Source of the DNA: an uncultured Chloroflexia bacterium
GTDB taxonomy: Bacteria; Chloroflexota; Limnocylindria; Limnocylindrales; CSP1-4
Assembly (NCBI GenBank): GCA_963712745.1
Contig: CAVQJC010000001.1
Span: 1-64,000 of the forward strand
Direction: 5' to 3'
Length of the DNA: 64,000 bases
The notes under the pieces are model-generated. The model made no database searches. It worked only from the letters and a program-made list of their open reading frames with translations, and was not told the origin of the DNA. Position numbers and translations under genes: made by a program. Within the stretch, counting starts at the first letter, position 1. Each line of letters starts with the position of its first letter. Positions 1 to 18,808 of this stretch are shown in pieces.

Positions 1-118
1 GTGGACCCGCCGCTAGCGAACACCCGTTCCAATCTGCGATGCTCGGGACCTCGGCGGGGCCCGGCCCCGACGGGAGGCCCGCGGTCCCCGAGGGCCCGAG
101 GAACGACGGGGACGTCGT
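1..118 (+). repeat. Copy 1 of ~115-bp direct repeat (LexA box + GC-rich structured segment)
   Basis: Near-identical to 1395-1510, including the identical core CCCCGACGGGAGGCCCGCGGTCCCCGAGGGCCCGAGGAA. Confidence 0.9.
17..30. promoter_or_regulatory. LexA/DinR (SOS) box
   Basis: cGAAC-ACCC-GTTCc matches the GAAC-N4-GTTC box of Firmicutes, Actinobacteria and Chloroflexi. Confidence 0.65.
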
Positions 119-137
119 TGTCGTGAGGGAGGTCGCG

Positions 138-167
138 GGTCAGGCGTGGATTCGCCTGCGCCTGACC
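138..167. terminator. Hairpin between repeat copy 1 and the 3' end of the convergent propeller gene
   Basis: Perfect 9-bp inverted repeat GGTCAGGCG/CGCCTGACC; no U-tract. Confidence 0.4.
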
Positions 168-180
168 GGACCGATACGGA

Positions 181-1186
181 CTACGGGAGTGGCAGGCGCC
201 ACACGGCATTGACGTCGTGGGCGCTGAGCCAGACCGCTGCATCGTCGGCAGCCACGCTGCCGCTCCCGGCCGGTGGCCCGTATCGCGCCACGACCGCGTT
301 CGTCGACGGGTCGATCTGGGGCGACGCAGCTGGTCGCTCATCCATGCCCACACGAAACCCCCTCGACGGCGATGTCGCCACCCTGGACGGGCGACGGCGT
401 CACGAGGATGGTCGCCGTGACGGCATCGGTCGCCGAGTCGATGCGCAACACGGTGCCGTCGCCTTCGTTCATGGCCCACACCGAGCCCTCGCCGACGGCG
501 AGGAAGCGCGGTCGGCTGCCGACCGCGAATTGCACTTCATCAGCACGGTGCCATCACTCGGTCGATGCGTCGCCAGACCGAGTTCGCGTCCATCTTGGCG
601 ATCCAGACGCCGCCGTAGCCGGCACGGACGCCGAACAACCCGGTCCCTACCGGGAACATCCCCACGACGGCATCGGTGTCTGGATCGACCTTCATGAGGA
701 GTTGCTCGCCGGGTCCGAGGGACACCGCCCAGACCGCCCCTCCCCGGCGGCCACGGAGCTCTCGTACTGGAGGTCGTTGACCTCGAGCGGGATCGTCGCG
801 CTGATCGTCGCCGTGGCAGGGTCGATCCGGACCAGGGACGGCGCGCCGGACTTGCAGGCACCCACCCAGACGGAGTCGAAGCCCACGTCCATGGCGAGGC
901 AGGTCTCCCCGGGCACCGGCAGCATCGCGAGTTCGGTCCCATCGGCGCCCGCGAACTGCTTGACCGCCTCGCCGACGGCGACCCAGGCATCACCGCCGGC
1001 CGTCACCACCCAGTCGGCGAAGGGTCTGACCGTCAGCCGCGTGGCGCCGGCCTCCTCGATGTCCTGGGCAGGCACGAGGGCTGGGCCGGACGACGGCGAG
1101 GCCTCCTGTGCGACGCTGCCGATGGGGACCGTCGTGACCGCCAACGCCAAGACGGTCCCAGCCAGTGGAATGACTCGCCTGTTCAT
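181..1186 (-). CDS. Secreted beta-propeller protein (Vgb/YncE-like), frameshifted
   Basis: Signal peptide MNRRVIPLAGTVLALAV. Repeated blades (VGFDSVWV, AVGEGSVWAMNEGDGTVLRID, GYGGVWIA, ADDAAVWLS) are spread over ORFs 692-1186, 540-725, 338-535 and 181-381. Confidence 0.7.
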
Positions 1187-1394
1187 CTCGGGAGCTCTCC
1201 TTCTCCCCCATCGCCGCCGTTCGTGTCACGCGGTCGGTGCGAACGTGCTGGCGCAGCATGATGAGGCACCGCGTCTGCCGTGTCACCACGGAACGAGTAC
1301 GGACGCGACGCAGCGTAGGACGTCCTTGCCTTCCCGCAGCGTCCGTGTCCTGAGCACCGACCCTGCTTCCTCGCCAAATCTCGTGGATAACTTC

Positions 1395-1510
1395 GTGGAC
1401 GCCGCCCCTAGAGAACATCGGTTCTATATGCGATGCTCGAAACCTCGGCGGGGACGCCCCCGACGGGAGGCCCGCGGTCCCCGAGGGCCCGAGGAAGACG
1501 GGGACGTCGT
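1395..1510 (+). repeat. Copy 2 of ~115-bp direct repeat; leader of the gene at 1530
   Basis: Aligns to 1-118 with a few substitutions and 1-bp indels; followed by GGAG and ATG at 1530. Confidence 0.9.
1412..1425. promoter_or_regulatory. LexA/DinR (SOS) box
   Basis: AGAAC-ATCG-GTTCT, symmetric arms, next to an AT-rich TATATG. Confidence 0.75.
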
Positions 1511-1529
1511 CATCTCTCGGGGAGACGCC

Positions 1530-2039
1530 ATGCCGAGCCATCCTGACCCTCTGCCCGCGCGGGCCGACATCGCCGCGGTCGCCGACCAGACCGGTCTGAG
1601 CCGCGAGGTCGTGGCGCGCCTCCGTGAGCATCTGACGGGGACCGATGGGACGCCACCGGACCGCGAGGACCTCGGGTCGTACGCGGTGTTCGGCGCCGAG
1701 CATCTCGGCGAGGGTGGCCTGCGCCTCTACCTCGAGCTGCCCGCCGACCCCGACCGTCCGGCCACGGCTGCCGCTCGGTGGCTGCTCGAGCAGTGGGCGG
1801 CGGAGGAGGAGGCGTGGTCGAAACGGCGGCGGGGGACCTGGTTCGACGGCAAGTTCTGGGTCGCCTACCTCGACGCCTGCAAACGCACCACGCCGCCCTA
1901 CACACCGCGCTCGGTCGCGCCCCACTTCGACACCCTCCATGGCAAGCGGGGCATCAGCCCCGACCACCTGCGCCGGCTCATCCGGCGGTTCGGCGTGATG
2001 GCCAGGGTGGACGGTCGCATCAGGGTGGTCTACCCGTAG
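1530..2039 (+). CDS. Hypothetical DNA-binding protein (N-terminal HTH-like, C-terminal domain shared with next gene)
   Basis: SD GGAG + ATG; IAAVADQTGLSREVVARLR is HTH-like; C-terminus FWVAYLDACKRTTPPYTPRSVAPHFDTLHGKRGISPDHLRRLIRRFG. Confidence 0.65.
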   Translation: MPSHPDPLPARADIAAVADQTGLSREVVARLREHLTGTDGTPPDREDLGSYAVFGAEHLGEGGLRLYLELPADPDRPATAAARWLLEQWAAEEEAWSKRRRGTWFDGKFWVAYLDACKRTTPPYTPRSVAPHFDTLHGKRGISPDHLRRLIRRFGVMARVDGRIRVVYP

Positions 2040-2070
2040 GGTCGGGCCCGCGTAGCGCCGGGGGGCAGCC

Positions 2071-2541
2071 GTGTCGGACCATCCTGACGACATCCTCAGG
2101 GACGCCGACATCGCCAGACTCCAGTCCGAGTTCGCGCAGCTCCATCCCATGCTCGTCGGGGCGCTCTTCGATCATCTCGAGACGAAGCGCGGCGGACAGC
2201 CGGGCATCAAGCGGGCCCGCGCCTACATCAAGCGCGTCAGGAGCCTCGACCCGGCCACGCTGTGGAAGCGTCTCGGGCTGCCGATGCCACCGCCGGAGCC
2301 GATGCCCACCCGTCGGTCGACCGCGCCGAGGACCGCGGCCCCTCGTCGGCGCCGACCAGGCCGACCCGGCTGGACGGCCGAGCTCTTCTGGGCTCGCTAT
2401 CGCGAGGCCTGCGAGCGTGCGGACCCACCGCACACGTACCGTGCGGTCTCGCGACACTTCGTGACCCTCGACGGCACGATCGGCACGAGCCCCGAGTACC
2501 TGCGCAAGCTCGTCCACCGCTTCGGCCTGCCCCCTCGCTAG
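2071..2541 (+). CDS. Hypothetical DNA-binding protein, C-terminal paralogue of 1530-2039
   Basis: C-terminus FWARYREACERADPPHTYRAVSRHFVTLDGTIGTSPEYLRKLVHRFG aligns without gaps to the upstream protein. Confidence 0.65.
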   Translation: MSDHPDDILRDADIARLQSEFAQLHPMLVGALFDHLETKRGGQPGIKRARAYIKRVRSLDPATLWKRLGLPMPPPEPMPTRRSTAPRTAAPRRRRPGRPGWTAELFWARYREACERADPPHTYRAVSRHFVTLDGTIGTSPEYLRKLVHRFGLPPR

Positions 2542-2582
2542 GGACCGCACCGAAAACCGTACCGATATCGCGACATACCCCT

Positions 2583-2598
2583 CCGGATAATTGTCCGG
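2583..2598. promoter_or_regulatory. Palindromic operator candidate upstream of the replication operon
   Basis: CCGGATAATTGTCCGG, near-perfect palindrome in a lower-GC intergenic gap. Confidence 0.45.
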
Positions 2599-2645
2599 GT
2601 TTCGGGGACTGTTTCGTCCTGCCGCCCTCGTGCACGCTCGATCCC

Positions 2646-2981
2646 ATGAGCTACTACACCGTCTACCTCGAGGGCGAAGACGCCGAGCGACTGCTCGAGC
2701 TCGCCCAGGCCGCGCGACGTCGTCCCCGCAGCCAGGCCGAGATCCTGCTCGAGGATGCCATCCGACGCGCGGGGACCGACGGTGACTCTTCCCTCGCCGC
2801 CCTGGTCGCGGCCTTCGAGGCCGAGGGCCGGAAGTGCTTCCGCCGCGCCGAGTCCAGCTCGACCGGGCTCGTGAAGAGCCTCGTGCTCCAGGCCCGCGGC
2901 GAAGCCTGGCTGCAGGCGGCCACGCGGCTGCGCGACGCCATCCCCTCCCACCGAAGCGCGGACGGCGCTGCCGGTCGATGA
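2646..2981 (+). CDS. Ribbon-helix-helix (Arc/CopG-like) regulator
   Basis: MSYYTVYLEGEDAERLLELAQAARRRPRSQAEILLEDAI shows a beta-alpha-alpha pattern; first gene of the operon. Confidence 0.55.
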   Translation: MSYYTVYLEGEDAERLLELAQAARRRPRSQAEILLEDAIRRAGTDGDSSLAALVAAFEAEGRKCFRRAESSSTGLVKSLVLQARGEAWLQAATRLRDAIPSHRSADGAAGR

Positions 2982-3036
2982 CCGGCCGACGGCCGCATAG
3001 GACCCACCCCTCCACCACAGCCGACAGGAGCACCAC

Positions 3037-3608
3037 ATGTCCGCAGGCACCATCACCATCACCGCCGGCCGCCCCAACCGCCAGGGGGACGAGAAGGACT
3101 TCTCCGGACCCGACGGCACGTACACGGCCACCCTGGTCGCGGTCAGCGAGCCGGTCACCGAGAAGTCGACGCATGGCCGACGCCAAGGGCGACGGCACCT
3201 GGACGTATCGCACCTGGACCTTCGCCATCGAGCCCGAGGGCGAGGTCCTCGACACCCGCGCCAACACCCGCATCGCCGGTCCCAAGTCCCGCCAGTACGG
3301 CATCGTCGCGGCCCTCGTCGGGCGCACCCCGACCGGTCGGCGCCGAGGTCGACATCCAGCGCCATCTCGTGGGTCGCCAGTGCCTCGTCTCGATCGAGAC
3401 GAACGACAACGACTACCCCTACATCAAGACGTTCATGGCGTTGCCGCCGGCGCGGGTCGGGAATGGCTCGGCACCGGCGCCGGCGCCGACTCCTGCGCCG
3501 CCGGCGGCGGCTCCGGCCGCACCGGTAGCCACCCCTGACTCGCTCCGGGCGCGCATGGCGCAAGCCGAGCAGCCCCAGGCGGCACCCGACGACGACCTCG
3601 GCTTCTGA
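3037..3608 (+). CDS. Phage-type ssDNA-binding protein (DUF669-like), frameshifted
   Basis: AGGAG SD; PDGTYTATLVAV...TWTFAIE...LVGRQCLVSIETNDNDYPYIK, Pro/Ala linker and acidic-aromatic tail DDDLGF; spread over three frames. Confidence 0.6.
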
Positions 3609-3632
3609 GCCGGGACCGAGACGATCGAGACG

Positions 3633-5598
3633 GTGGGCGACGTGACCACCCTCGTCATCCCCGACGTCAGCGGGCTCGACCTGCCGGCGGCCGCGGTCGC
3701 GTATGCCGAGGCCGGCTGGCGGGTGGGCCCGCTGTGGTGGGTACGCGAGGACGGCACGTGCGCGTGCGGGTCGCCGCGCTGCCGACCGCGCGACCGGGGC
3801 AAGCACCCCATCGCCAAGCCCGGCCTCGTGCCCCATGGCCTGCGCGACTTCAGCGATCACACGGGGCAGGTCGCGGGCTGGTGGCGCCGCTATCCGGAGG
3901 CCAACATCGGCCTGCTGCCACCGGCGGGCACGTTCGGGCTCGATGTCGACGATCCTGCGACGTGGAAAGCCCGTGGTCCGGCCCTCCCCCGCGTCGGTCC
4001 GGTGCAGCTGACGGGATCGGGTGGCGGGCGACGCCAGCACCTCTACCACCTCGACGGCCATGCCACAGGGGAAGTGGCGTTCAACAAGCCGCTCACCGGC
4101 TACGGCGTGGAGACGAAAGGCGACGGTGACGGCTACCTGGTGGTGGCCCCCTCGATCACGACCGAGCCGTACCGCTGGGTGCGCACCGGACCCCTGCCGG
4201 TCGTGCCCGATGCGCTCTGGGCCATCCTGCCGCGCCGGACCGAGCGCCCCACGTCGACGACGACCATCTCCATCGACGACTGCTGCGCGGTCCCGGCGCG
4301 CATCGAGCGCGACCCTGGCGGCCGCGACTGGCTGCTGGCGAAGACCGCCCACCTGCGCGCGGCGCACCGGCTCACCGGCGCCGCCGCCCGAGCCATCCTG
4401 GTCACCTATCTCCCGGCCATGGACCCGCCCTACCCGTCGGGCGACGGCGGGGCCGAGTCGACAAGATCCTCGCCTACGACGCTGCCCACCCGGGCGCATC
4501 GGGTCGGGCGGGCGCGACCGTCGGGCGACGAGCCCCGCCCCGGGCCCGGCATCGACGCCGCCGACCTGCTCGCGCTCGATCTGCCGCCGCTGCGCGCATG
4601 GTCGTGCCCGACCTGCTGCCCGAGGGTTCGAGCATCCTGGCCGCACCGCCGAAGGTGGGCAAGAGCTGCCTCGTCTACCAGATCGCGGTCGAGGTCGCCC
4701 TCGGCGGCTCGCTCCTGGGACGGCGGGTCGAGCCTGGCTCGGCGCTGTATCTCGCGCTCGAGGACGGCCATCGTCGCGGGCAGGAGCGCCTGCGGGCAGC
4801 CCTCGCCGGGCGGACGATGCCCCGCGGACGGCTCGAGGGGCTGGGGTGCGCGGCACATCGGCGCGGGGCTCGAAGAGGACATCGCGGCCTGGCTCGACGC
4901 ACACCCCGACGCCGCGCTCGTGGCCATCGACACGCTCGGACGGGTGCGCCCGGGCTCCGATGGGCGGCGCAACGCCTACGAGGTCGACGTCGAGGACCTG
5001 GGGCGTCTGCAGGGGCTGTTCCGCGACCGGCCGGTGGCGCTGCTCATCGTCCACCACACGAACAAGGACAGCCGCGACGACTTCCTGGCCCTCGTGTCGG
5101 GCACCTATGGGCTGACCGGGTCGGTGGACACGATTGATCGTCATCCGCCGCAAGCGCCTCGAGGCCTTCGGCACCATCGCGGTCACCGGGCGCGAGGTGG
5201 CCGAGTCCGAGCTCGCTGCCCGCTTCGACGGCATGACCTGGCAAGAGGCACCCGACTCCCTGGCCGAAGCCTCGTTCCAGCGCATCGAGGTCTACCGCAT
5301 CATCGAGGAGGCGGGGCCCATCTTCCCCAAGGCCATCGCCGACCGCCTGGGGCTGTCACGGACCTCGGTCCAGAACATGACCGCGTCGCTCGTGGCCGAT
5401 GGGGCCATCGCGCGGACCTCACGCGGCTACGTCACCGTCGGGGTCGTCTTGGAGAGTCATCCGAGTCACCGCGAGTCATCGGAGTCATCGGAGTCACCGG
5501 CCCCCGGTGACTCTGCCCTCCGAGAGATGATCCGAGTCATCGCGGACGACCAAGGGGTCGAAGGGGACACCCCTCCCTCTGAGCGTGCCTACCACTGA
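3633..5598 (+). CDS. Bifunctional primase/polymerase (Prim-Pol) fused to AAA_25/RepA-type helicase with C-terminal HTH, frameshifted
   Basis: YAEAGWRVGPL, CACGSPRC..GKHP, GLDVDD, TGSGG..QHLY, GYLVVAPS; Walker A AAPPKVGKS; Walker B LVAIDTL; LLIVHHTNK; IADRLGLSRTSVQN. Confidence 0.85.
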
Positions 5599-5645
5599 CC
5601 CCGGTGACTCTGATGATTTCCTACGGGGAGAGTCATCCCAGTCAC
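5454..5645. repeat. Iteron-like GAGTCAY cluster (putative origin)
   Basis: GAGTCAY at 5454, 5463, 5473, 5482, 5491, 5534 and 5630; inverted GTGACTC at 5507 and 5604. Confidence 0.7.
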
Positions 5646-5816
5646 CGGGGGGACGCGCGCGAGGGGGCCGCCGTGGCGGTGCCGGCGCCGGCCGCCGGCC
5701 GCTGTCCCGACTGCGGGCTCGGGCCCTTCATCTCGGCCGACTACTACGAGCGCCACTGGCTCGACACCCACGACTATCCCGCGAGCGCCTGGGGATTACG
5801 GGGGCTGCCGGCATGA
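5604..5816 (+). CDS. Small protein with C2H2-like zinc finger (start uncertain)
   Basis: CPDCGLGPFISADYYERHWLDTH (C-x2-C-x13-H-x4-H); stop overlaps next ATG. Confidence 0.4.
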   Translation: MTLMISYGESHPSHRGDAREGAAVAVPAPAAGRCPDCGLGPFISADYYERHWLDTHDYPASAWGLRGLPA

Positions 5817-6866
5817 CCGCCGCCGACGAGCTCACCGCCTTCCTCCGCGCCCGTGGGGGCGAGGCGCCGGCCGCGGTGTGCACCGAGCACCTCCGCGCCC
5901 GCGGCTATGGCAGCGCCGCCCGCAAGGCGGCCAAGGAACGCGCCGGGGTCGTCTCGCGCAAGACCGGCTACGACGGCAAGTGGGTCTGGCGCCTGGCCGA
6001 CGATGTCGAAGGTGCCGCGGCGGTCCCCGACGCCGCGGCACCACCCTCCGCCGTCATCACCATCTCGGCGGGACCGCGCAACGCCCGCACCGGTCCCGGC
6101 CACCGGCCTGCGCTTCTACACCTGGCGGGGACGGGACCTGCCGTCGGTGACGAGCATCCGCCGCATCGCCGGGCTGCCCCACGGGCTCCACCAGTGGGCC
6201 CTCAACCAGGTCATCAGCCACGCGCTCGACCACTGGCCCGAGCTCACCGAGCGCCTCGCCGGCGGCGACCCCGGGCGGCTTAAGGTCGTGCGCCATGACC
6301 TGCGGGCCGCGGCCACCGCGCAGCGCGACCGGGCCGCCGACCTCGGCACCGCCGTCCACGAGGCGGCCGCGCGACGCCTGTCGCCGACCGAGGTGCCGCC
6401 CGAGGTCGCGCCGCGTCTGCGCCAGTACCTCGACTGGCTGTCTGTGTCGGGGGCCGAGGTCCTCGCCACCGAGCGCCAGGTGTGGAACCTGACCCTCGGC
6501 TACGCCGGCAGCTTCGACCTGCTCGTGCGGCTGCGTGACGGCTCGATCCACCTCGTCGATCTGAAGACGGGCAAGGGCACCTACCCCGAATATGCGCTCC
6601 AGCTCTTCGCCTACGCCATGGCCGAGTTCGTGGGCGAGGACGATGTCGTGGACGAGGCGGCGACCGCACTCCTCCACGCCATCAAGGGCATGGCCGTGCT
6701 CCATCTCACCGACACGGGCTGGGAGTACATCGCGCTGCGGCCGGACCCCGAGACGTGGTCGGCCTTCCGCGGCCTGCTCACGTTCGCGGTGTGGATGGCG
6801 ACGCACCGGGACATGGCCTCGGTGACCCTGGCGTCGCGGACGGGGCGGGAGGAGCCGGCCGCATGA
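5813..6866 (+). CDS. PD-(D/E)XK phage exonuclease with N-terminal wHTH-like segment (frameshift near 6090)
   Basis: LPSVTSI, AADLGTAVHE, ERQVWNLTLGYAGSFDLL, LVDLKTG, LQLFAY. Confidence 0.8.
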
Positions 6867-6936
6867 CGAAGCGCTGCCTCCGGACCGACCCGCACGACTG
6901 CTTCCTCGGGCGCCATCGTCGAGCCCGCCAAGGCCC

Positions 6937-7221
6937 GTGCGCATCGCCGAGAAGGACTTCCAGCGACAGGTGCTCGAGGTCGCCCGCCTCTATCGCTGGC
7001 ACGCCTACCACCCGGCGCTCTCGAAGTGGAGTGAGCGTGGCTGGCCAGACTTGGCTCTGGTCCGCCCACCCCGGCTCGTCTTCGCCGAGCTGAAGTCGGA
7101 GTCGGGCAAGGTGACCGAGCACCAGGAGCGGTGGCTCGGGTTGCTGCGCGGGTGCCCCGGGATCGAGGTCTTCCTGTGGCGGCCGTCCGACCTCGAGCGG
7201 GTCGCGGAGGTCCTGCGCTGA
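6937..7221 (+). CDS. VRR-NUC domain nuclease (junction resolvase-like)
   Basis: EKDFQRQV...GWPDLALVR..LVFAELKSESGKVTEHQERWL. Confidence 0.85.
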   Translation: MRIAEKDFQRQVLEVARLYRWHAYHPALSKWSERGWPDLALVRPPRLVFAELKSESGKVTEHQERWLGLLRGCPGIEVFLWRPSDLERVAEVLR

Positions 7222-7385
7222 TGGACCTTGAGGTGTCGCGCCCCGTGAGCGAACATGCCGACCCCGACGGAGCGAGGGTCGAGGTGACGATGGTCGAGCG
7301 AGACGATGCTGCCCTGCGCCTCGCTCGGGTCGCGGCCATCATCGCGGCCGACCGGGAGCGCCGGGCGAAGGACCTCGCGGCATGA
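7221..7385 (+). CDS. Small hypothetical protein coupled to the integrase
   Basis: ATG overlaps the VRR-NUC stop and TGA overlaps the integrase ATG; 54 aa. Confidence 0.45.
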   Translation: MDLEVSRPVSEHADPDGARVEVTMVERDDAALRLARVAAIIAADRERRAKDLAA

Positions 7386-9147
7386 CGACAGCGCTCTACG
7401 CCAGGGTGTCCTCCGAGCGCCAGGAGCGCGAGCAGACCATCGACTCCCAGATCGCGGCGCTCGAGGCCTTCGCCTTGAAGCTCGAGGGCACGGTCGAGCT
7501 CTACGCCGACGACGGCGTCCACGGCGGCAGCCTCGACCGGCCGGCGATGAAGAAGCTCCGCGACGCCCTCGCCGCGGGCATGCACGAGGCCCTCGTGGTC
7601 TACGACATCGACCGCTTGAGGCGCGACCAGGCCGACCTCTACCAGCTCGTCTACCGCGAGGTCATCGGGCGCGGTGTCGCGCTCTACGTGGCCAAGACCG
7701 GAGCCCGCTTCGAGGACACCGCCGAGGGCGATGCCCTCTTCGCGATGTTCGCGGCCTTCGCCAAGATCGAGCGCCGCCGCATCGGCGAGCGTGCCCGCCG
7801 GGGTGCCAAGCACCGCGCGAAGGTCGAGGGCCGCGGTCAACGGCGGCATCCCCACGCTACGGCTTCGCCTTCGAGGACGGCCGCCACGTGCTCGTCCCCG
7901 ACGAGGTCGCCTGGTGCCGCCAGATGAGCGCGTGGCTGCTCGTCGGGCATCACCCCCGGGGTCATCGCCGAGCGCCTCGCGCTCCACGGGGTGCCCACCC
8001 GCTACGACACGCTGGGCATCGTGCGCAAGGGCAGCCGGCGCCTGCCCAACACCTGGTATCCCGACCAGGTCCGGCGCATCCTCACCGACCGCCTCTACGG
8101 TGGCGAGTGGGTCTACCACGCCTGGGACGGCAGCGAGATCGTCGTGCCGGTGCCGGCCATCTTCACCTCCGCCGAGCAGGAGGCCCACCGGGCCCGGATC
8201 GCCCGCAACGTGGCGGTGAAGAAGCGCGCCGACGGCCCGGTCAACCTCCTGCGCGGCCTCGTCGTCTGCGGGATGTGCGGTCGACGCTACCTCGCGGGCT
8301 ACGCGTCGCGAGCAGCGCATCTACCGCTGTGGGGTGTGGCACCGGCCCAAGCGCCTGCGCGACTGCGCCAACAAGGGCTGGACCGCGCGGAAGCTCGAGG
8401 GCATCGTGTGGTCGGTCGTGGAGGCCTTCCTCGCCGGACCCCGCCACCTCGCTCGCGGCGGTCGAGGCGCAGGGCCACGACCCCGACCAGCCCGAGCTGC
8501 GCATCGCCGGGCTCGAGCGACGTCTCGGCGAGCTCGAGGCCGAGGACGCCAGGGTGCGGGCCGGCTTCCGGGCGGGTATCTGGGACGCCGCCGGGGCACG
8601 GGCCGAGCTGGGACGCTCGGCCAAGGCGCGCACGCTCATCGAGGGCGAGATCGCCGACATGCGCAAGCGCGCGGTCCAGCAGGCCCGCCTCGCCGACCTC
8701 GAGCGGGCAGCCGCCGAGCTGCGGGGCCATCTGCCCGCGCTATCACACGAGGCTCGGGGCCAGGTGCTCGCCGAGCTGGTCGAACGCATCACAGTGACGG
8801 AGGAACTCGTGGAGATCCAGCTCATCGTGCCCATCGCGAGGCGCGGAGGGGGCCATCCAGCAGCAGAACCCCACAGAGAGACCGGCCAGGCGCTCCCAGG
8901 TCACGATGGCGTGGTACTCGGTGCGCTCCTCTCCCCCGCGATACTCGTTGGTGGCCACGCTGAAGTTGGTGACCGTCTTGCCGCTGGGCAGCGAGCGCAT
9001 CTCCGGGTCACGAGTGAGTCGTCCGGTCAACAGGACACGGTTCATGAGGACCTCCCTTGCCGGACGATCACACGAGGCGTCCGGCTCTCGACACTGCGGC
9101 GGGTATCGACTTCGGCGGGTCCTCGGCGAACGGTGAGGGCACGATAG
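7382..9147 (+). CDS. Large serine recombinase (integrase), multiply frameshifted; homologous part ends near 8835, frame stays open to 9147
   Basis: LYARVSSERQ catalytic Ser, YDIDRLRR, recombinase domain (YGF...VRRILTDRLYGG), Zn ribbon LLRGLVVCGMCG..YRC..C, coiled coil, ELVERITV. Confidence 0.9.
8884..9045 (-). pseudogene. ssb: 5' half of single-stranded DNA-binding protein gene, interrupted by the element
   Basis: GGAGG SD; MNRVLLTGRLTRDPEMRSLPSGKTVTNFSVATNEY..TEYHAIVTWERLA, after which SSB homology stops. Confidence 0.85.
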
Positions 9148-9370
9148 CGAGGGGCGCTTATCACGTCGTCAACCAGCGCTTATCGCGGGCTGCGCACAAG
9201 CGCTCGTTGCAGTCGCGAAACCCACGCGCGCCCGGCCGAGCAGGAGCGGGCTGACCCGCGGCGGGGAGCGGCCGCCGTGGTAGGGTCCGAGCGGCCTTGC
9301 TCCGCAAGAGTCAGGGAGTCCGGCAAGGACCACGGAGTTCGGCCCGAGGCACGAAGGATGGAGCAACCAC

Positions 9371-10351
9371 ATGCCCGCTACCGACCCTGCGGCCGCACCG
9401 AGCCACGAGCAGGCTCCGCCGCGAGCAGCGAGCGATGGATACAGACCCGTCGAGTTCACGTCTGATGGAGCGACGTTGCGGGGACGGCTCTACCTGCCCG
9501 GCAGACCGCACGCTGCGGTCGTCGTCATGGGGCATGGCTTCTCAGCGACCATCCCGATGGTCATGGACCGCTATGCCGAATGTCTCCGTGATGGCGGCCT
9601 GGCGGTGCTGGCATTCGACCATCGGGGGCACGGCACGAGTGACGGCGAGCCGCGAGGCGAGATCAACCACTGGGTGCAGGCGCGTGGCTTCATCGACGCC
9701 ATGAGCGCGGCCCGCGCCATGGCGGACGTCGGGTCGGCCCCGATCGCGCTCTGGAGCGACAGCATGAGCGCCCGCGTCGCCGTCGCCGTGACCGCTCTCG
9801 ACGATCGAGTCAGCGCCCTAGTCTGCCAGGTGCCGGCCTTCGGTGACAAACCTGGGGTCGATGACCCGGACGGCGCCCGGCTGGCGGCCATGGCACGGTT
9901 CCTGACGGCGGGCCGACTGCGTCGACCGTCCGGCTGGGTGTCGTCGCCGGTCGTATCCGCGGACCAGACCACGAACCCGTCCGCGCTGAAGCCGTTGACC
10001 GCATTCCGCTGGTTCATCGAATACGGCGGGCGCTACGGCACCGGCTGGACGAACCGGGTCGTCTTCACCACGGCGGACGATGCACCCCCCTTGGACCCGT
10101 TCGCCTGTGCTGCGCAGATACGAGTACCCACGCTGGTGGTCATGTCGCCCGACGACGAGATGGAGGGCGCGGTGAGTAGCGTCACCCGGGCGGTCTTCGA
10201 ACGTCTCCCGGGGCCAAAGGAACTGCTGGAGATAGATGGAGGGCACTTCGGTCTCCTGGAGTACCCCGGCGCCCTGTTCGACCAAGCCAGCCGGGCCCAG
10301 GTGGCTTTCCTGGCTCGAACCATGTCCCGGCCTGGCTCACACTCGGCGTAG
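9371..10351 (+). CDS. Alpha/beta-fold hydrolase
   Basis: VVVMGHGFS, AFDHRGHGTSDGEPR, nucleophile-elbow-like WSDSMSA, GGHF. Confidence 0.85.
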   Translation: MPATDPAAAPSHEQAPPRAASDGYRPVEFTSDGATLRGRLYLPGRPHAAVVVMGHGFSATIPMVMDRYAECLRDGGLAVLAFDHRGHGTSDGEPRGEINHWVQARGFIDAMSAARAMADVGSAPIALWSDSMSARVAVAVTALDDRVSALVCQVPAFGDKPGVDDPDGARLAAMARFLTAGRLRRPSGWVSSPVVSADQTTNPSALKPLTAFRWFIEYGGRYGTGWTNRVVFTTADDAPPLDPFACAAQIRVPTLVVMSPDDEMEGAVSSVTRAVFERLPGPKELLEIDGGHFGLLEYPGALFDQASRAQVAFLARTMSRPGSHSA

Positions 10352-10562
10352 CCACGACCGACCCGCGCGGGTCGCGTTCGCGCACTGCGACTGGCGCAGC
10401 GAGCGCCAAGGCGCGTGACGCTTTCGCCCGAGTGCGCCCTGCCCGCGCTCATGGGCCCCTCGGCACTTCCACGGCTCTTCATCGTCGCGGTACAGTGTGT
10501 GGATACGATCTGAATTCCTACTCGGGATCCTTGCCGTGAGGAGCCGTGTGACCGACTGGGAC

Positions 10563-11549
10563 ATGTCGAGATCGGGGGATCTTCGGCTGCGCAACGAGCG
10601 CTTGCTGCTGCTTGGCCTTGCCTGCTACGCCCTGCTCGTCGGTGCGCTCATCTTCCAGAATCCTGCGGCCATCACGCCCGACGTCGTGGTCGTGGCCGTC
10701 GCGCTCGCGGGCGTCCTGCTCATCCGTGGACGCTGGTGGGTCTCCCACTGGGTCCCCATCGTGGCCCTCCTCCTGGCCTACGAGCTGATGCGTGGCCTGG
10801 CCGACGATGCCGGCTTCCCGCTCCACATGGAAGACCTCATCGCGGCCGAGCGCCTGCTCGGTCTGGGTGCCCTGCCGACGCAGGTGCTGCAGGAGGCGAT
10901 ACGCCCGGTGGCAGGCATCGACTGGGTGGCATTGCTGTCCACGGGTGTGTACATGCTCCATTTCCTCGTCCCCATCACCACCGGCGCGCTGCTGTGGATG
11001 TGGCGCCGCGACCAGTTCCATGACTTCATGGCCGCGCTCATCGTGCTCAGCATGGCCGCGTTCGTGACCTACCTGTTGCTGCCGGCAGCCCCACCCTGGT
11101 ATGCGGCCAACGCCGGCCTGCTGAACGGGCCCGACGGCCTGCCACTCATCGCCTACCTGAAGCCGGAGACCTTCGCTGACGTGGGTGCCTCGCTGGGCCT
11201 CGACGGCAACAACGTCTATGACACGGTCTTCTATGCGGCGGGGCCGAACGACGTGGCGGCCTGGCCATCGCTCCACGTGGCCTACCCGTTCCTCGCCTTC
11301 CTCGTGCTGCGGCGAGCCTTCGGCCGCATCGCCTGGGTCGTGGCCGGCTACGCGCTGGTCGTGGCCTTCTCGGTCGTCTACACCGGTGACCACTGGGTCC
11401 ACGACTGCGTCGCGGGAGCGGCCTACGCCTACGTGGCCTACTACCTGGTGGTGCATACGCCGGTGGCGGTGCGTGAGTGGTTCGACCGCACGTTCATGCC
11501 CTCGAGCGAACCGGTGTCTGCCCGCTCCACCATCAGCGAGGCCGACTGA
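10563..11549 (+). CDS. PAP2-family membrane phosphoesterase (Aur1/IPC synthase-like)
   Basis: Multiple TM segments; PAAPPWY, AAWPSLHVAY, VYTGDHWVHD. Confidence 0.85.
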   Translation: MSRSGDLRLRNERLLLLGLACYALLVGALIFQNPAAITPDVVVVAVALAGVLLIRGRWWVSHWVPIVALLLAYELMRGLADDAGFPLHMEDLIAAERLLGLGALPTQVLQEAIRPVAGIDWVALLSTGVYMLHFLVPITTGALLWMWRRDQFHDFMAALIVLSMAAFVTYLLLPAAPPWYAANAGLLNGPDGLPLIAYLKPETFADVGASLGLDGNNVYDTVFYAAGPNDVAAWPSLHVAYPFLAFLVLRRAFGRIAWVVAGYALVVAFSVVYTGDHWVHDCVAGAAYAYVAYYLVVHTPVAVREWFDRTFMPSSEPVSARSTISEAD

Positions 11550-11700
11550 TCCCTACCATGCGAACTGGTTCGGGTGGATGCCGACCTGTGTCGCGGGCCC
11601 ACGGCTCGGTCGGGCCGAGCTCCCGCCTGCCGCTGACCCTTCCGGCGCCCGGTGGCCGAACGCTTGCCACGTACGGCGCCGGCAAGAGGTGGGCTCCACG

Positions 11701-12420
11701 ATGACCTTGCCGGGGGCGGTCGCCCGCTGGCTCGACGCACTGGGCGAGGGGGCTTCGGCACCCGACACCGCCGTTATCGAAGGCCGGTCACGCTTCCGCC
11801 GCAACGGCCGAGGCCTGTGGCTGCCGATCACAGCGGTGATGTGGCACGAGCTCGGTCGGAACCACGTGGCTGACCTTCGCGTCGGCTTGGGGCCGCTGAC
11901 GTTCGTGCGCGGCCTGGACGGCTACGTCGACGGCACCGGCTTCAGCCGCATCAGTCACACGCTCGACATGGGCCCCGAGATCGACCAGTCGGCGGTGCTG
12001 TTCATGTGGGCTGAGGCGGTGCTGTTCCCGGCCGCCTGGCATGGCCGGGAGGAAGTCGAGTGGTCCGCCATCGACGACCACGCCGCCGACGTCTCACTGC
12101 CGTTCGGCGACGTCCTCGTGCCGGCGCGGCTGACGTTCGACCCAGGCTCCGGTTACCCGCAGCGCTTCAGCGCGGAACGCCACAAGGGAGTGGGCGCGGC
12201 CAAGGTCGAGTGGATCGTCGACTACACCGATTGGGGGCCGACCGAGGACGGCGTGACGCTGCCGGGCACGGCCACGGTGACCTGGACCGATGAGCCGGGC
12301 CCGTGGTTCCGCATGCACATCGACCGCGCCAATCCCGGCGCTGACGTCAGCGCGGCCCTGGCCCGGGGGCGGGCGGTGCTGGCGGCCGCCGCCGCCGACC
12401 CTATACGCAGGCCCCGCTGA
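11701..12420 (+). CDS. Hypothetical protein (DUF6544-like)
   Basis: Clean ORF; GLDGYVDGTG..GPEIDQSA..WAEAVLFP..VEWSAIDD pattern. Confidence 0.6.
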   Translation: MTLPGAVARWLDALGEGASAPDTAVIEGRSRFRRNGRGLWLPITAVMWHELGRNHVADLRVGLGPLTFVRGLDGYVDGTGFSRISHTLDMGPEIDQSAVLFMWAEAVLFPAAWHGREEVEWSAIDDHAADVSLPFGDVLVPARLTFDPGSGYPQRFSAERHKGVGAAKVEWIVDYTDWGPTEDGVTLPGTATVTWTDEPGPWFRMHIDRANPGADVSAALARGRAVLAAAAADPIRRPR

Positions 12421-12485
12421 TGGCGGTCGCGGACGTATCGTGCTGCTCGTCGGAACCGATCTCTACCAGGGAGCGTCTCATCGAC

Positions 12486-13331
12486 ATGCAGCATCTCCTT
12501 CGTCCTGCCCTGCTCGCTCTGCTCGTGCTCACCGTTCTACCCGGCGCCTCGGCCGCGTCCGACACCGACAGCACTCCGGGGGCCGGTGCGCGGGCCGATC
12601 CGGTCTATGTCAATTCGACCGAGATCCTCTACCTCGAGAGCTTCCCGGTGCAGCTGGATCTGCTGGTGGAGGGTTCGCTCCCGACTCCCTGCCACGAGCC
12701 CATGTGGGAAATCGATGACACTGGCAGTAGCGTCGACGTCCGCCTTTGGAGCGAGGCCCCACCAGAGGCGGCCTGCATCGCCATCCTGGAGCCGGTGGAG
12801 TTGCGCATCCCACTCGGCTCGTACGAAACGGCCAACGTGGCGGTGTCGCTCAACGGTGACCCGGTCGGCCGCATCGGGGTCGGACAGGGCGGAGCAGACG
12901 AGCCCGACCTGCTCGGCGCAGGCTGGTCGTTCGGGATGTGCCTGGGCTACTGCGGCGCAGACCTCGAGGTGAAGGACGACCGGCTGTCCATGAGCGGGTG
13001 GGACCGCGAGGCCTCGCAGCCGCTCTATGCCAACGCGGGCATGCTGACCCCAGCCGGCCGTGAGCGACTCGCGGCAGCACTCGAGGGCGTCGATGTCGGA
13101 TCGCTCGAGGCCACCTACGGATGCCCGGACTGCGCCGATGGCGGAGCGGCCTACATCCTGCTCGGCGCTGGAGATACCCCGAGCCGCCACGACATGGAGT
13201 TCGGCCGCCCGCCGCCCGAGTTGACCGAGGTCTGCGAGCTGACGGCAGCCATGATGTCGGCGCTCGAGGCGTGCCGCTCGGACGAGCTGGTCACGGTCGA
13301 CGACGACTGCGAGGCCTACCAGAGGCGCTGA
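12486..13331 (+). CDS. Secreted Cys-rich hypothetical protein
   Basis: Signal peptide; ESFPVQ..GSLPTPC, SFGMCLGYC, YGCPDCADGG. Confidence 0.65.
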   Translation: MQHLLRPALLALLVLTVLPGASAASDTDSTPGAGARADPVYVNSTEILYLESFPVQLDLLVEGSLPTPCHEPMWEIDDTGSSVDVRLWSEAPPEAACIAILEPVELRIPLGSYETANVAVSLNGDPVGRIGVGQGGADEPDLLGAGWSFGMCLGYCGADLEVKDDRLSMSGWDREASQPLYANAGMLTPAGRERLAAALEGVDVGSLEATYGCPDCADGGAAYILLGAGDTPSRHDMEFGRPPPELTEVCELTAAMMSALEACRSDELVTVDDDCEAYQRR

Positions 13332-14174
13332 TCAGCGCCTCTCGTCGGCGAACAGCTCCCGCCTGGGCAGGCCGGTCTCCTCGGCCACGATCCGAGCGGC
13401 CGACGAACGCTTGACGCCCTCGGCCACGAGCCGGTCCACGCGTGCCCACCCGTCCGCCAGGCTGAGCGAGGCCGTGGCCTCGGCCGTGGCGCCGGCGACC
13501 ACGATGACGACCTCGCCCCTGATCGGCTCGGACGCTGCGGCCGCGGCCAGCTCCGCGAGCGTGCCGCGGCGGACCTCCTCGTGCAGCTTGGTCAGCTCTC
13601 GCGCCAGGGCCGCTCGGCGGTCTCCGCCGCAGGCCCCGGCCAGGTCACGCAGTGTCGCCGCCGTTCGGCCGTGCGCCTCAAAGAGGACCGTGGCCCGGTC
13701 GTCGGAGGAGATGCGCGAAAGGCGCTCGCGCCGCTCGCGACCCTTGCGCGGCAGGAAGCCCTCGAAGCCCCAGCGCGGTGCGGGGATGCCGCTGGCTACC
13801 AGCGCGGACAGCACCGCCGAGGCACCGGGGATGGGCACGACGACGCCGCCAGTGGCGACCCAGGCAGCGACCAGCACCTCGCCGGGATCGCTCACCAGGG
13901 GCGTGCCGGCATCGGTCACGAGCGCCACGTCGTCGCCCGACTCGAGCCGCTCGACGAGCTGCTGCGTACGCCGGTCGTCGCTGTGGGCGTGGTAGCTGAG
14001 CAGCGGCGTCGCGATCTCGTAGCGGGACCACAGCTTGCGCGTGACGCGCGTGTCCTCGGCGGCTACGACCGCCACCGAGCGCAGTACCTCGAGCGCGCGC
14101 AGCGTGATGTCGCCGAGGTTGCCGATGGGCGTGGCCACCACGAAGAGCGTGCCGCGGCCGCTCTCCCCGGCCAC
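13332..14174 (-). CDS. rsmI: 16S rRNA (cytidine1402-2'-O)-methyltransferase
   Basis: LFVVATPIGNLGDITLRAL, AEDTR, VTDAGTPLVSDPG, RELTKLHEE. Confidence 0.95.
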   Translation of the reverse strand: MAGESGRGTLFVVATPIGNLGDITLRALEVLRSVAVVAAEDTRVTRKLWSRYEIATPLLSYHAHSDDRRTQQLVERLESGDDVALVTDAGTPLVSDPGEVLVAAWVATGGVVVPIPGASAVLSALVASGIPAPRWGFEGFLPRKGRERRERLSRISSDDRATVLFEAHGRTAATLRDLAGACGGDRRAALARELTKLHEEVRRGTLAELAAAAASEPIRGEVVIVVAGATAEATASLSLADGWARVDRLVAEGVKRSSAARIVAEETGLPRRELFADERR

Positions 14175-14175
14175 G

Positions 14176-15045
14176 TCAGTCGCGCGCCGAGCGCGGACGG
14201 CGGCGGGGGTAGAGGTAGTCGATGCCGGCCGTGCGCGGCCCGATCTTGGCGATCGGCGGCACCTGCCGCTTGAACTCCGAGGCGGCGACCATGCGGTCGA
14301 TCCGCGCCACCATCTCCGGCTCGAAGCCGTCGGCCGCGATCTCGTCGAGCGACAGCCGCCGGTCGACCAGTCGGAACAGGATGCGGTCGAGCTCGGCATA
14401 CGAGAAGCCGACCTCCTCCTCGTCGGTCTGCCCGGGCCAGAGGTCGGCCGAGGGCGCCTTGGCGATGATGGCCTCTGGCACGTCCATGGCCGCGCTCAGC
14501 TGACGGACCTGCGACTTGTAGATGTCGCCGATGGGGTTGAAGGCGCTGGCGCTGTCGCCCCAGAGCGTGCTGTAGCCGATGAGCGTCTCGGTCTTGTTGC
14601 CCGTCCCGATGACCAGCCCGCCCCAGGTCACCGAGTGGTCGTACAGCACCATCATCCGGGCGCGGGCCATGAAGTTGCCGCGTCGCAGCGGGACGGCATC
14701 GGCGCGGCTCTCGTCGAAGTAGCCGTCCACGATGGCGCTGATGTCCACCAGCTCGCTCGAGCAGCCGAGTCGGCGCACGACCTCCTCGGCGTCAGCCCGG
14801 GAGACCGGCGACGAGGTCCGGTAGGGCATCAGTACGGCCAGCACGTGCTCCGCCCCGATGGCCTCCGCCGCGAGGTAGGCCACGAGCGCCGAGTCGATGC
14901 CGCCCGAGAGGCCGACCAGGGCCTTGTCGAAGCCGGCCTGGGCGAGCTGGGCGCGGATGAACTCGCCGATGATGCGGCGCGCGGCGGAGGTATCGATGGC
15001 CAGCTCCGCCGGCAGCTCGAAGGCCGGTTTCGGGGGGGCAGTCAT
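14176..15045 (-). CDS. nadE: NAD+ synthetase (synthetase subunit)
   Basis: GLSGGIDS, GNFMARARM, GTGNKTE, KAPSADLWPGQTDE. Confidence 0.95.
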   Translation of the reverse strand: MTAPPKPAFELPAELAIDTSAARRIIGEFIRAQLAQAGFDKALVGLSGGIDSALVAYLAAEAIGAEHVLAVLMPYRTSSPVSRADAEEVVRRLGCSSELVDISAIVDGYFDESRADAVPLRRGNFMARARMMVLYDHSVTWGGLVIGTGNKTETLIGYSTLWGDSASAFNPIGDIYKSQVRQLSAAMDVPEAIIAKAPSADLWPGQTDEEEVGFSYAELDRILFRLVDRRLSLDEIAADGFEPEMVARIDRMVAASEFKRQVPPIAKIGPRTAGIDYLYPRRRPRSARD

Positions 15046-15937
15046 GGCCGCTTGGCGCTGCGGGCGTTGCGCTCCAGGCGCTCGCCGATGATCTGGTCGA
15101 GCTGACGGATGACGACTTCCGGACGCTCGTCGCGCAGCAGTGGCGAGGCGATGCGCTCGCGGCGCAGTTCGGCCGGCTCGATATGCGTGACGTAGAGGCC
15201 CTCGTCGTGGGTCGGCGCGCGGAAGACGCTGGCGCCGTTGGGCGCCACCACCTCGGAGCCGCCCCAGAAGGTGATCGACTCGTCCACGCCGACGCGATTG
15301 ACGAAGATGACGTAGCTCGTCGTCAGTTGTGCGTAGGTGCGGTTGAGCGAGCGCCACGATTCGGCCGTGCCCAGGCCCAGCTCGTTGATGGCGGCCACGT
15401 CACGACCCGGCGAGGAGGAGACGTTGATGAGCACCTGCGCGCCGTCGAGCGCAAGCAGCTGCGCCGTGGCCAGGTGCCAGAAGTCCTCGCACACGCTGAT
15501 GCCAAGGCGCAGGTCGAGGTTCTCCGAGTTGGCCGCGCGGATGGTCGAGCCCAGGAGCGAAGAAGCGGCGCTCGTCGAAGAGGCCGTAGGTGGGCAGGAA
15601 GACCTTGCGATGGACGTGGCGGATGCCCTGGTTCTCCAGCAGGGCCGCCGAGATGAATAGCTTGTGGTCCGACGATTCCTCGACGAACGAGACGATCGAC
15701 GCTCATGGGCCCGGCTGCCCTGGCCAGCTCCAGCAACCGCGGGTCGTTGCGCCGGATGGCGACCTCCGCGTTGAGGTCCTGGAGCAGGTAGCCGGTCAGG
15801 CCCAGCTCCGGGAAGACGACGAGGTTCGCTTCGTGCCCGCGAGCTTCCGCGATGAGCCGGTGGTGGCGCTCGAGGTTGTCGTCGAGCGCACCGAGCCGAG
15901 GTGCGATCTGGGCGAGCGCGACGCGGATCGGTGCCAT
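15042..15937 (-). CDS. Carbon-nitrogen hydrolase (probable glutaminase partner of NadE), frameshifted
   Basis: VALAQIAPRLG, VFPELGLTGY, VCEDFWH, VNRVGVDE; overlaps nadE start. Confidence 0.85.
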
Positions 15938-15979
15938 GGCGCAGAGTGTATGCCGCGGGAGGCGCGGGGTCGCGGCCGC

Positions 15980-16363
15980 TCAGTACGTCTCGACACGAAC
16001 CGGCGTCAGGGCGAAGTCCTTGACGTTGCGCGTGAGGACGGCCGCATCGACCGCGTCCGCCGCGGCGGCGACGAGGCGTCCGGCCAGGCTCAGGTGGTAG
16101 CCCCGCGACGTCGCGCGATCTCGCCACGCACCGGCCAGCACCGCTGCGTCAGCTGGCCCGGCTGGATGAACTCGACCGGCTCGAAGAAGGCATGGAACGT
16201 CGGGAAGCTCCTCGTCGCGGGTACCGGCGCGGACCTCGCAGACGACGATCTCGTTGACGAACGGCTCGTCGCCAGCCTCGAACAACGCACGGTAGCGCTC
16301 GATCGCCTCTGGCAGGCCGCGCATGTGGTCGATCACGAAGGCGGAGTCGAGCAGCAGCCTCAT
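15980..16363 (-). CDS. vapC: PIN-domain toxin (internal frameshifts)
   Basis: MRLLLDSAFVIDHMRG, NEIVVCEV, VLTRNVKDF. Confidence 0.8.
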   Translation of the reverse strand: MRLLLDSAFVIDHMRGLPEAIERYRALFEAGDEPFVNEIVVCEVRAGTRDEELPDVPCLLRAGRVHPAGPADAAVLAGAWRDRATSRGYHLSLAGRLVAAAADAVDAAVLTRNVKDFALTPVRVETY

Positions 16364-16682
16364 CGCGGAGTCGGGCTCCGTGCTGGTCTCCTCCGCGCGC
16401 ATCTCTCGTACCCACGCGACGACGTCCGCGGATGTCCGCCAGTGCGGGTAGTGCTCGCATGGGCAGGGAACCGGCGGTTTGTTCGATGGATACGCGTAGA
16501 CTGCTCACGCTTGATGGCCTTGCGTAGCGCCTCCTCAGCGAAGGCACTGCGATTACGAGGGCCCGCGACCTTGTCGAGGTCCTCGACCAGATCCTCGGGC
16601 AGGCTCAGGTTGACCGGGATCGGCGCCTGGGTTCCGGCAAAGGAGTCGAGGTCCAGTCGACCGGTACCGTGCGTACAGCCAT
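16360..16682 (-). CDS. RHH antitoxin (VapB-like), frameshifted, start uncertain
   Basis: VNLSLPEDLVEDLDKVAGPRNRSAFAEEALRKAI; directly upstream of vapC; tandem TGCGTACAG near 16670-16690. Confidence 0.65.
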
Positions 16683-16938
16683 GCGTACAGTCATTGCGCA
16701 GACTCGTGCGCAGAGTCAAGGGACGACCGGGCCACCGCGTGACGACGTGATCCCACGCGGTGCTAGGCTTCCGGAACGCCGCGAAGGGTGCGAGCGCTCT
16801 GCCGCGTCGCGCACCTGCGGGTGGCTGTTGAGGAGGACGGCTCGACCGAACCAGGGACATCGTCAGCCGATGTCCGTGGTCAGCCGACGACTCTAGGGAG
16901 TGCCCCCGTCGCCGTCGCGGCGAGAATGAGGAGACGAG

Positions 16939-18713: not shown

Positions 18714-18738
18714 CCCGTTCACCGAACGAGCGACTGTT

Positions 18739-18775
18739 GGCACCGACCGGCTCGCACGGCCGGTCGGTGCCTTTT
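18739..18775 (+). terminator. Intrinsic terminator/stabilising hairpin after the SBP gene
   Basis: GGCACCGACCGGC-N7-GCCGGTCGGTGCC-TTTT. Confidence 0.75.
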
Positions 18776-18808
18776 CACCACCCCTAGGAATCCGCACTAC
18801 ACCGACTG

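Follow-up and report, generated by a model that had tools for sequence, protein, structure and literature searches.

We analysed a 64-kb stretch of DNA from an uncultured Chloroflexia bacterium (assembly GCA_963712745.1, contig CAVQJC010000001.1, positions 1 to 64,000), which is called the window here. Contig C1 of the genome bin G000 (20 contigs, 4.22 Mb, 84.6% completeness, 5% contamination and about 68% G+C) starts with these 64 kb, and no sequence precedes position 1. Coordinates are window positions unless a contig is named, and searches within the genus covered 48 other genomes. Table 1 shows that the left end of the window holds a cassette of replication and recombination genes on the plus strand, which terminates in a large serine recombinase gene. 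This gene abuts the 5' part of a gene encoding an SSB (single-stranded DNA-binding protein), named ssb2 here, on the opposite strand. An earlier reading made without database searches (the sequence-only reading) had taken the cassette for a compact, SOS-controlled replicative element that a serine integrase had inserted into a secondary ssb gene.

Table 1. Features at the left end of the window (aa, amino acids; ORF, open reading frame; OB, oligonucleotide/oligosaccharide-binding; RHH, ribbon-helix-helix; att, attachment site)
Feature	Position	Strand	Basis and remarks
R1, second copy of the early regulatory region	1..118	+	Cut by contig start; LexA-box-like palindrome 18-29
Region X, secreted repeat protein gene	338..1186	-	ORFs in three frames here
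R2, regulatory region upstream of the cassette	1368..1529	+	TCGTGGA repeats 1381-1387 and 1393-1399; LexA-box-like palindrome 1413-1424
Early protein, 169 aa	1530..2039	+	ORF; no PHROG family
Paralogue of the 1530-2039 protein, 156 aa	2071..2541	+	No Pfam or PHROG match; kept in G008, G065 and G007
Small DNA-binding-type protein, RHH-like by sequence pattern	2646..2981	+	Kept in G008 and G065
OB-fold single-stranded DNA-binding-like protein	3037..3608	+	C-terminal tip ..DDDLGF; three frames; extra bases near 3173 and 3332
Replication initiator, Prim-Pol / AAA_25 helicase / winged-helix	3633..5816	+	Pfam; several frames here
Iterons GAGTCAYCS, direct and inverted copies, presumed origin	5454..5647	.	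Repeat search
PD-(D/E)XK exonuclease with extra N-terminal domain	5813..6866	+	Pfam PDDEXK_1 (5853-6866); extra base near 6098
VRR-NUC nuclease	6937..7221	+	Pfam VRR_NUC; PHROG endonuclease / Holliday junction resolvase families
Large serine recombinase (integrase)	7382..8895	+	Pfam Resolvase and Recombinase (7382-8797); frame crosses junction into ssb antisense
attR: phage arm CAGAGAGACC (8874-8883) and shared core GGCCAGGCGCTC (8884-8895)	8874..8895	.	Comparison with G065
ssb2, 5' part, 54 codons	8884..9045	-	Pfam SSB positions 1-59 of 104, E 1.5e-15

The replication and recombination character of the cassette, which the sequence-only reading had recognized, was confirmed by Pfam matches to Prim-Pol, AAA_25, PDDEXK_1, VRR_NUC, Resolvase and Recombinase domains and by the presence of iterons. 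In the initiator, the Prim-Pol and AAA_25 matches fall within 3633-5510 and the winged-helix match within 5134-5598, and the orthologue in the related genome G008 is a single 728-aa ORF that matches PHROG primase/helicase families. The 9-bp unit GAGTCAYCS is present 4.7 times at 5454-5496, with more direct and inverted copies up to 5647. The exonuclease orthologue in G008 was placed in the PHROG exonuclease family phrog_298 (expectation value, E, 2.8e-29), and the PHROG assignments were phage-type for the primase/helicase, the exonuclease, the endonuclease and the integrase. At the start of the cassette, the C-terminal part of the first early protein is paralogous to the product of the next gene. 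The earlier call of an RHH protein at 2646-2981 stands as a sequence pattern, from which alone the label comes, but Pfam gave just a weak HTH_62 match (E 0.0014). Scans with Rfam (E up to 1) and for tRNAs found no RNA genes in 1-10 kb or 1-20 kb.

The 3037-3608 protein, which had been called SSB-like, matched no Pfam or PHROG family. Its orthologue in G008 is intact (185 aa), and none of its 74 homologues has a precomputed Pfam domain, all being named only "hypothetical protein." When the G008 orthologue was modelled with an alignment of 31 sequences from these 74 homologues, the model had an OB fold with a predicted local distance difference test (pLDDT) score of 82.5. The best match in the PDB was PrgE from plasmid pCF10 (E 2e-4); RPA, gp32 and SsbA/SsbB folds came next. 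By its predicted fold, the protein is closer to PrgE than to gp32.

In every comparison, ssb homology ends at 8883/8884 after ..WERLA, and DNA matches to ssb2 from the genus begin at 8883-8885, in agreement with the earlier observation that the ssb frame loses homology near 8884. Intact ssb2 genes read ..VTWERLA(E/D)ICGQ(Y/F)LGKGQ(M/L)VSLEGRLQTRRWEDD.. and end in ..VAA, without the canonical ..DDxPF tip. An intact orthologue of 148 to 159 aa is present at 14 of the 16 relatives' loci, the other two being cut by a contig end or carrying a broken frame. With the G021 protein as the query, matches of the full-length type numbered 34 and came from 33 of the 48 other genus genomes. Two public metagenome contigs continue uninterrupted past 8883 into the rest of ssb2; the public runs share at most 0.11 of the sampled words, and their contigs derive from related populations, not necessarily the same strain. 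Host synteny returns directly to the right of the junction, with 8885-19880 being collinear with G059. Since homology stops at 8883-8885, relatives are intact and host synteny resumes to the right, the break in ssb2 is real, precise and derived. The primary ssb gene is at C10:162104-162433, encodes a protein ending in ..DDLPF and is followed by rpsR, which bears out the view that the stand-alone ssb is a secondary paralogue. The genome also contains comEC and dprA, which is weak evidence for, and compatible with, a role of ssb2 in transformation.

The 3' half of ssb2, which the sequence-only reading expected on the far side of the element, was absent from the minus frames of window positions 1-1700. 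Searches of the whole assembly with tblastx and tblastn, using intact relatives as queries, found no full 3' half. Besides the ssb2 5' half and the primary ssb, they returned only one diverged fragment, at C5:352368-352475. What we found instead was a piece of 13 codons (..DRLAEMCGQFLGK) at a left junction on contig C20, unlinked to C1. Because purH is located close to the end of C6 and, in G059 and G021, downstream of ssb2, a link between C6 and C1 was considered. It was rejected, as synteny is lacking in the final 1.8 kb of C6 and none of the contig ends overlaps with the beginning of C1.

The N-terminal resolvase catalytic domain of the recombinase, with its serine nucleophile (PF00239, E 2.1e-30), covers residues 4-148 and contains the motif ..YARVSSERQ.., and the Recombinase domain PF07508 was also matched. 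A zinc-ribbon (PF13408) is recorded for the close relatives P0001-P0008, and the window frame is broken over that part. The window recombinase matches residues 1-491 of the 506-aa P0001, spread over three reading frames. Full-length relatives in a large protein collection have 501 to 609 aa with Resolvase, Recombinase and zinc-ribbon domains, and P0001 was assigned to the PHROG integrase family. When the N-terminal 153 aa were used as the query (cutoff E 1e-15), none of the 48 other genus genomes gave a close relative. When species-representative genomes were scanned with P0001, a single locus was found: L032 in G065, a metagenome-assembled genome labelled as Candidatus Limnocylindrales, which encodes P0002 and has the same cassette order. 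The N-terminal 153 aa of the window recombinase are 93% identical to P0001 and 89% identical to P0002, and P0002 is 85% identical to P0001. Compared with L032, the window gene contains five extra bases, each on its own, and a 39-bp insertion that keeps the frame. This insertion, at 8835-8873 (13 aa, IARRGGGHPAAEP-type), lies just ahead of the conserved ..RETGQA in comparison with L032 and P0001.

The conserved recombinase C terminus ..RETGQA(V/L) spans the junction, and GQAL is the antisense reading of the ssb2 codons E-R-L-A. The shared core GGCCAGGCGCTC is likewise the antisense of these codons, which are codons 51-54 of ssb2. Both junctions of the G065 prophage carry GACCGCCTGGCC with inverted arms, and the window junction has the same arm. 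From the G065 junctions we rebuilt an attP in which the inverted arms CGAGAGAGAC / GTCTCTCTCG surround a 12-bp stretch common to attB, and the window arm agrees with it. With the recombinase adjoining the junction and the insertion point at codons 51-54, the earlier claim that a serine integrase inserted the element into ssb is supported.

The relatives carry the same cassette in the setting of tailed prophages. In G065, an ssb2 piece TEYHSVVTWDRLA at C10:39321-39368 abuts the recombinase end, and the ssb2 3' half is found at C10:356-748, 38.6 kb away. The interval between them matches PHROG families (E down to 1e-96) for a ParB-methyltransferase, a fused terminase-large-subunit/portal ORF, and major head, major tail, tape measure and minor tail proteins, together with a weak endolysin-family match (E 3e-5). 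Both ssb2 halves are available in G065, and precise excision rebuilds ssb2 in silico. The G008 cassette is 84% identical over 2356-7221; a terminase gene lies 18 kb upstream of it in the same orientation, and the interval contains genes for major head, head-closure and tail-chaperone proteins. In G007, the terminase gene (C37:58067-59557) is 16 to 18 kb upstream of the cassette gene at C37:75854-76032, and contig C20 of G054 starts with the phage left end joined to a complete ssb2 3' half. The module varies within the family, G008 having a different recombinase and G065 having a different replicase. From the contexts in G065, G008, G007 and G054, the cassette is the early, replication and integrase module of a tailed temperate phage family, with prophages of 35 to 40 kb in G065 and G008. 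We therefore assign window positions 1-8883, with a probability of about 0.75, to the right end of an integrated phage genome that is temperate, of siphovirus type and from a family found in this Limnocylindrales-like lineage, with ssb2 as the insertion site.

The palindromes listed for R1 and R2 in Table 1 have the form GAAC-N4-GTTC and are its only two occurrences in the 64-kb window. The motif is invariant in the five aligned copies of the regulatory region and is present in G065 as well (six copies in all), where it lies 113 bp upstream of the first cassette gene and is the sole occurrence in 40 kb of the prophage region. It also matches the host lexA promoter (lexA, C6:278110-278733), in which CGAACAAGTGTTCG is located between TTGACA and TAGTGT. 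The conservation and position of this predicted LexA box make SOS control of the cassette plausible, and in its match to the host lexA operator the earlier claim of SOS control finds its support. GIL01 and CTXphi are LexA-controlled temperate phages without a classical CI repressor, and as in these phages the predicted LexA box overlaps the early promoter region. In the present case, unlike in GIL01 and CTXphi, a phage repressor may sit in the unseen part of the genome.

Several observations weigh against a prophage of this kind in G000. On the regulatory side, GAAC-N4-GTTC occurs 70 times genome-wide against about 36 occurrences expected from base composition, so that a single occurrence is weak and the argument for SOS control leans on conservation and position. 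No such motif was seen within 400 bp upstream of recA, and no CI-type repressor was identified. To the left of the cassette are a non-phage-looking secreted-protein gene (region X) and the second regulatory copy, R1, with no tail or lysis genes. The matching attL is on another contig, at C20:30806-30939 (about 30.85 kb); it shares 84% identity with the junction in G054 and is similar to the one in G065. It is internal to the 660-kb C20, and beyond it come about 12 kb of phage-like genes and then host-like genes. Matches to the terminase families phrog_9 and PF03354 and to the HK97 capsid family PF05065, and homologues of the G065 or G008 structural genes, were absent from this 84.6%-complete assembly. 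The cassette with attR on C1 and the attL on C20 could be the leftovers of one old prophage, a defective and rearranged remnant from which the virion module and most of the ssb2 3' half are gone; ssb2 would then be permanently inactive and no switching would occur. The R1-X-R2 arrangement resembles a recombination scar, and at least nine related islands led by small LuxR-type genes could drive such rearrangement. On the other hand, the ssb2 5' half is 95% DNA-identical to that of G022 with its start and frame intact, the cassette genes align full-length to intact relatives without large deletions, and the bin is incomplete and may mix strains. Contig breaks adjoin the cassette in G053 and G013 too, as expected for a repeat-rich or polymorphic prophage. 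We consider a defective remnant a real possibility, though somewhat improbable. The statement in the sequence-only reading that the window has no virion genes is true only because the window begins at a contig end, 1.4 kb left of the cassette module, and is to be read in that light.

The compact element proposed in the sequence-only reading would be a non-viral, self-replicating satellite or integrative plasmid of about 7.5 to 9 kb that ends near the cassette. Cassette homology among G000, G008, G053 and G013 does start sharply at 1368-1383, with different DNA further left in each, and a distinct serine-recombinase element of 9.3 kb is also inserted in the ssb2 of G065. Phage satellites and integrative plasmids are small and have their own att sites, but no ssb 3' half or att-like core was found left of 1368. 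In G065 the cassette is flanked on its left by prophage DNA, with attL 38.6 kb off rather than at the cassette edge, and upstream of the G008 cassette the same strand carries head and terminase genes. We judge the proposal of a compact element very unlikely. The cassette genes could also be true pseudogenes in a decaying fossil. At least 12 frame-breaking indels, many of one or two bases, were counted in the 7.5 kb of cassette, affecting the OB-fold, initiator, exonuclease and recombinase genes, while rpoB and rpoC each read as one open frame. The indels fall within 3037-8432, and their sites include 3173, 3332, 4592, 5136, 6098, 7837, 7856, 7943, 8310 and 8432. Of the extra bases, one at 3170, two at 4592 and one at 5135 are missing from relatives and from the public contigs. 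However, a host stretch at 15550-16499, including the glutamine-dependent NAD synthetase gene, has nine mostly single-base insertions relative to G059 and none in the preceding 2.2 kb, and similar breaks occur in other genes of G008 and G054. Gene decay does not usually show an excess of insertions. Because the same kind of indel clusters in host genes, the indels look like local assembly error in low-quality patches, and gene decay, our first reading of the multi-frame genes, was dropped and is judged unlikely. The integrity of the genes is not judgeable from this assembly.

R1 is 88% identical to 1395-1510 and 91% identical to the G053 copy. Region X (692-1186) had no PHROG match; DNA homologues were found in 2 of the 48 other genomes of the genus, and the homologue in G010 is in an ordinary chromosomal setting. 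Region X is either accessory cargo or displaced host DNA, and R1-X-R2 is either cargo of the phage, together with an operator region that has been duplicated, or the scar of a recombination event. One public-run contig is 99% identical to 1026-1394, after which 194 letters are unlike the window from 1394/1395. This divergence point is the position that matches the first base of C1 in the other repeat copy. Joints in public-run contigs with sides of 20 to 42 letters and 88% likeness, including one from 7185 to 36, were set aside, and an 81-base skip at 4457-4539 (side 69) was also not used; the public-run contigs thus yielded no junction fit for use.

At least nine copies of a small LuxR-type helix-turn-helix gene like that at the prophage left end are present in G000, on C17 (two), C9 (start), C8, C10, C16 (two) and C20 (two). 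Five of them share a conserved upstream sequence of about 100 bp, which may be another att-type site. Elsewhere in the bin, C1:386740-454809 and C2:86665-118422 are both collinear with a single region of G010 at 72 to 84% identity, which reflects either a large duplication or a mixed bin.

Other insertions and fragments of ssb2 were also found. In G065, ssb2 also contains a second element of about 9.3 kb (L032 11517-20770; C10:39385-48640), inserted some 10 codons upstream of where the prophage joins the gene. This element has a serine recombinase of its own (409 aa) and further encodes a RepA/AAA-type protein and an HNH protein, and both flanks keep ..TEYH... The G003 ssb2 (L048; G003:C51:10688-10867 on) ends in ..VTWDRL and is followed by unrelated, AT-richer DNA, 220 bp before the contig end; this insert differs from the prophage insert and lies at almost the same ssb2 codon (about 53). 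Lone ssb2-like 3' fragments (residues about 81-153) are scattered in G000 (the C5 fragment above), G001, G005, G024, G049 and G053, and they may be scars or phage-carried pieces. The prophage family, the 9.3-kb element, the G003 insert and the scattered fragments could together point to ssb2 as a dedicated, recurrent landing pad for unrelated serine-recombinase elements, in which LexA-driven excision would make ssb2 a damage-responsive switch or disruption would guard the prophage from transformational removal, as proposed for streptococci. We regard this extended proposal as speculative and unlikely.

In the prophage reading that we prefer, the recombinase would have joined attP to attB within ssb2 codons 51-54 (E/D-R-L-A), splitting ssb2 in the middle of the OB fold while the host retained its primary ssb. 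DNA damage would then de-repress the early operon, comprising the two paralogous proteins, the RHH-like protein, the OB-fold protein with an SSB-like tail, the initiator, the exonuclease, the VRR-NUC nuclease and the integrase. The Prim-Pol/helicase initiator would act on the adjacent iterons as an origin, and excision would also need a recombination directionality factor (RDF), a role that a replication protein might fill. Observed are the complete prophages with both flanks in relatives, the exact position of the junction, the gene assignments and the conserved LexA-box motif, whereas induction by the SOS response, excision, the use of the iterons as an origin and the state of the prophage in G000 are what we infer from these comparisons. 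The prophage in G000 may be intact with an unassembled or unbinned middle, or it may be rearranged and defective. For a gene-splitting switch, both gene halves are intact in G065 and the attL side is intact in G054, but in G000 only the 5' half is.

"Active lysogeny" elements with large serine recombinases include SPbeta in spsM, skin in sigK and phi10403S in comK. The present case is like these in that the insertion is within an ORF, a large serine recombinase is present and excision would rebuild the gene, as it does in silico in G065. It differs in that the full ssb2 3' half is absent from the G000 assembly and in that regulated excision without lysis is hypothetical here. Among actinophages, the directionality factors of large serine integrases are replication proteins, the RDF of TG1 being an SSB and that of Bxb1 being exonuclease-like (PMC11795197). 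As in the TG1, phiC31 and Bxb1 systems, the integrase here lies beside replication genes that include an OB-fold single-stranded DNA-binding-type protein and an exonuclease. Since the TG1 and Bxb1 factors are of these two kinds, the OB-fold protein and the exonuclease could, speculatively, be candidate RDFs.

Literature searches on phages integrated into ssb yielded nothing closer than phiB6 of Streptococcus mitis B6, and a search on Limnocylindr* prophages yielded one unrelated paper only. phiB6 integrates in ssbB through a 9-bp core and disrupts the gene near its 5' end, and its authors suggest that the disruption lowers transformability (PMC2828477). A 2025 study lists the ssbB site among rare pneumococcal attB sites that likely inhibit transformation (PMC12637031). 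Like phiB6, the phage described here would be temperate and would disrupt a secondary, non-essential ssb paralogue by inserting within its coding region. Unlike phiB6, it is inserted at codons 51-54 by a large serine recombinase and in a high-GC, Chloroflexota-type host. The idea that the insertion may block competence thus has a published precedent in phiB6.

The event is of a known type, a prophage in a spare ssb, found here in a new bacterial lineage. It yields a large serine integrase, together with an attB/attP pair, from an uncultured, high-GC lineage that has been little studied, and it outlines for the first time what the temperate phages of this lineage look like: their module order, an early region with a LexA box, and an unannotated OB-fold family with an SSB-like tail. 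It also gives a caution for windows at contig edges, in which a seemingly compact element can be one end of a far larger one and apparent decay looks like assembly noise. The "prophage in spare ssb" pattern is extended from streptococci to a distant phylum, and its recurrence in such distant hosts hints that secondary SSBs are preferred phage targets.

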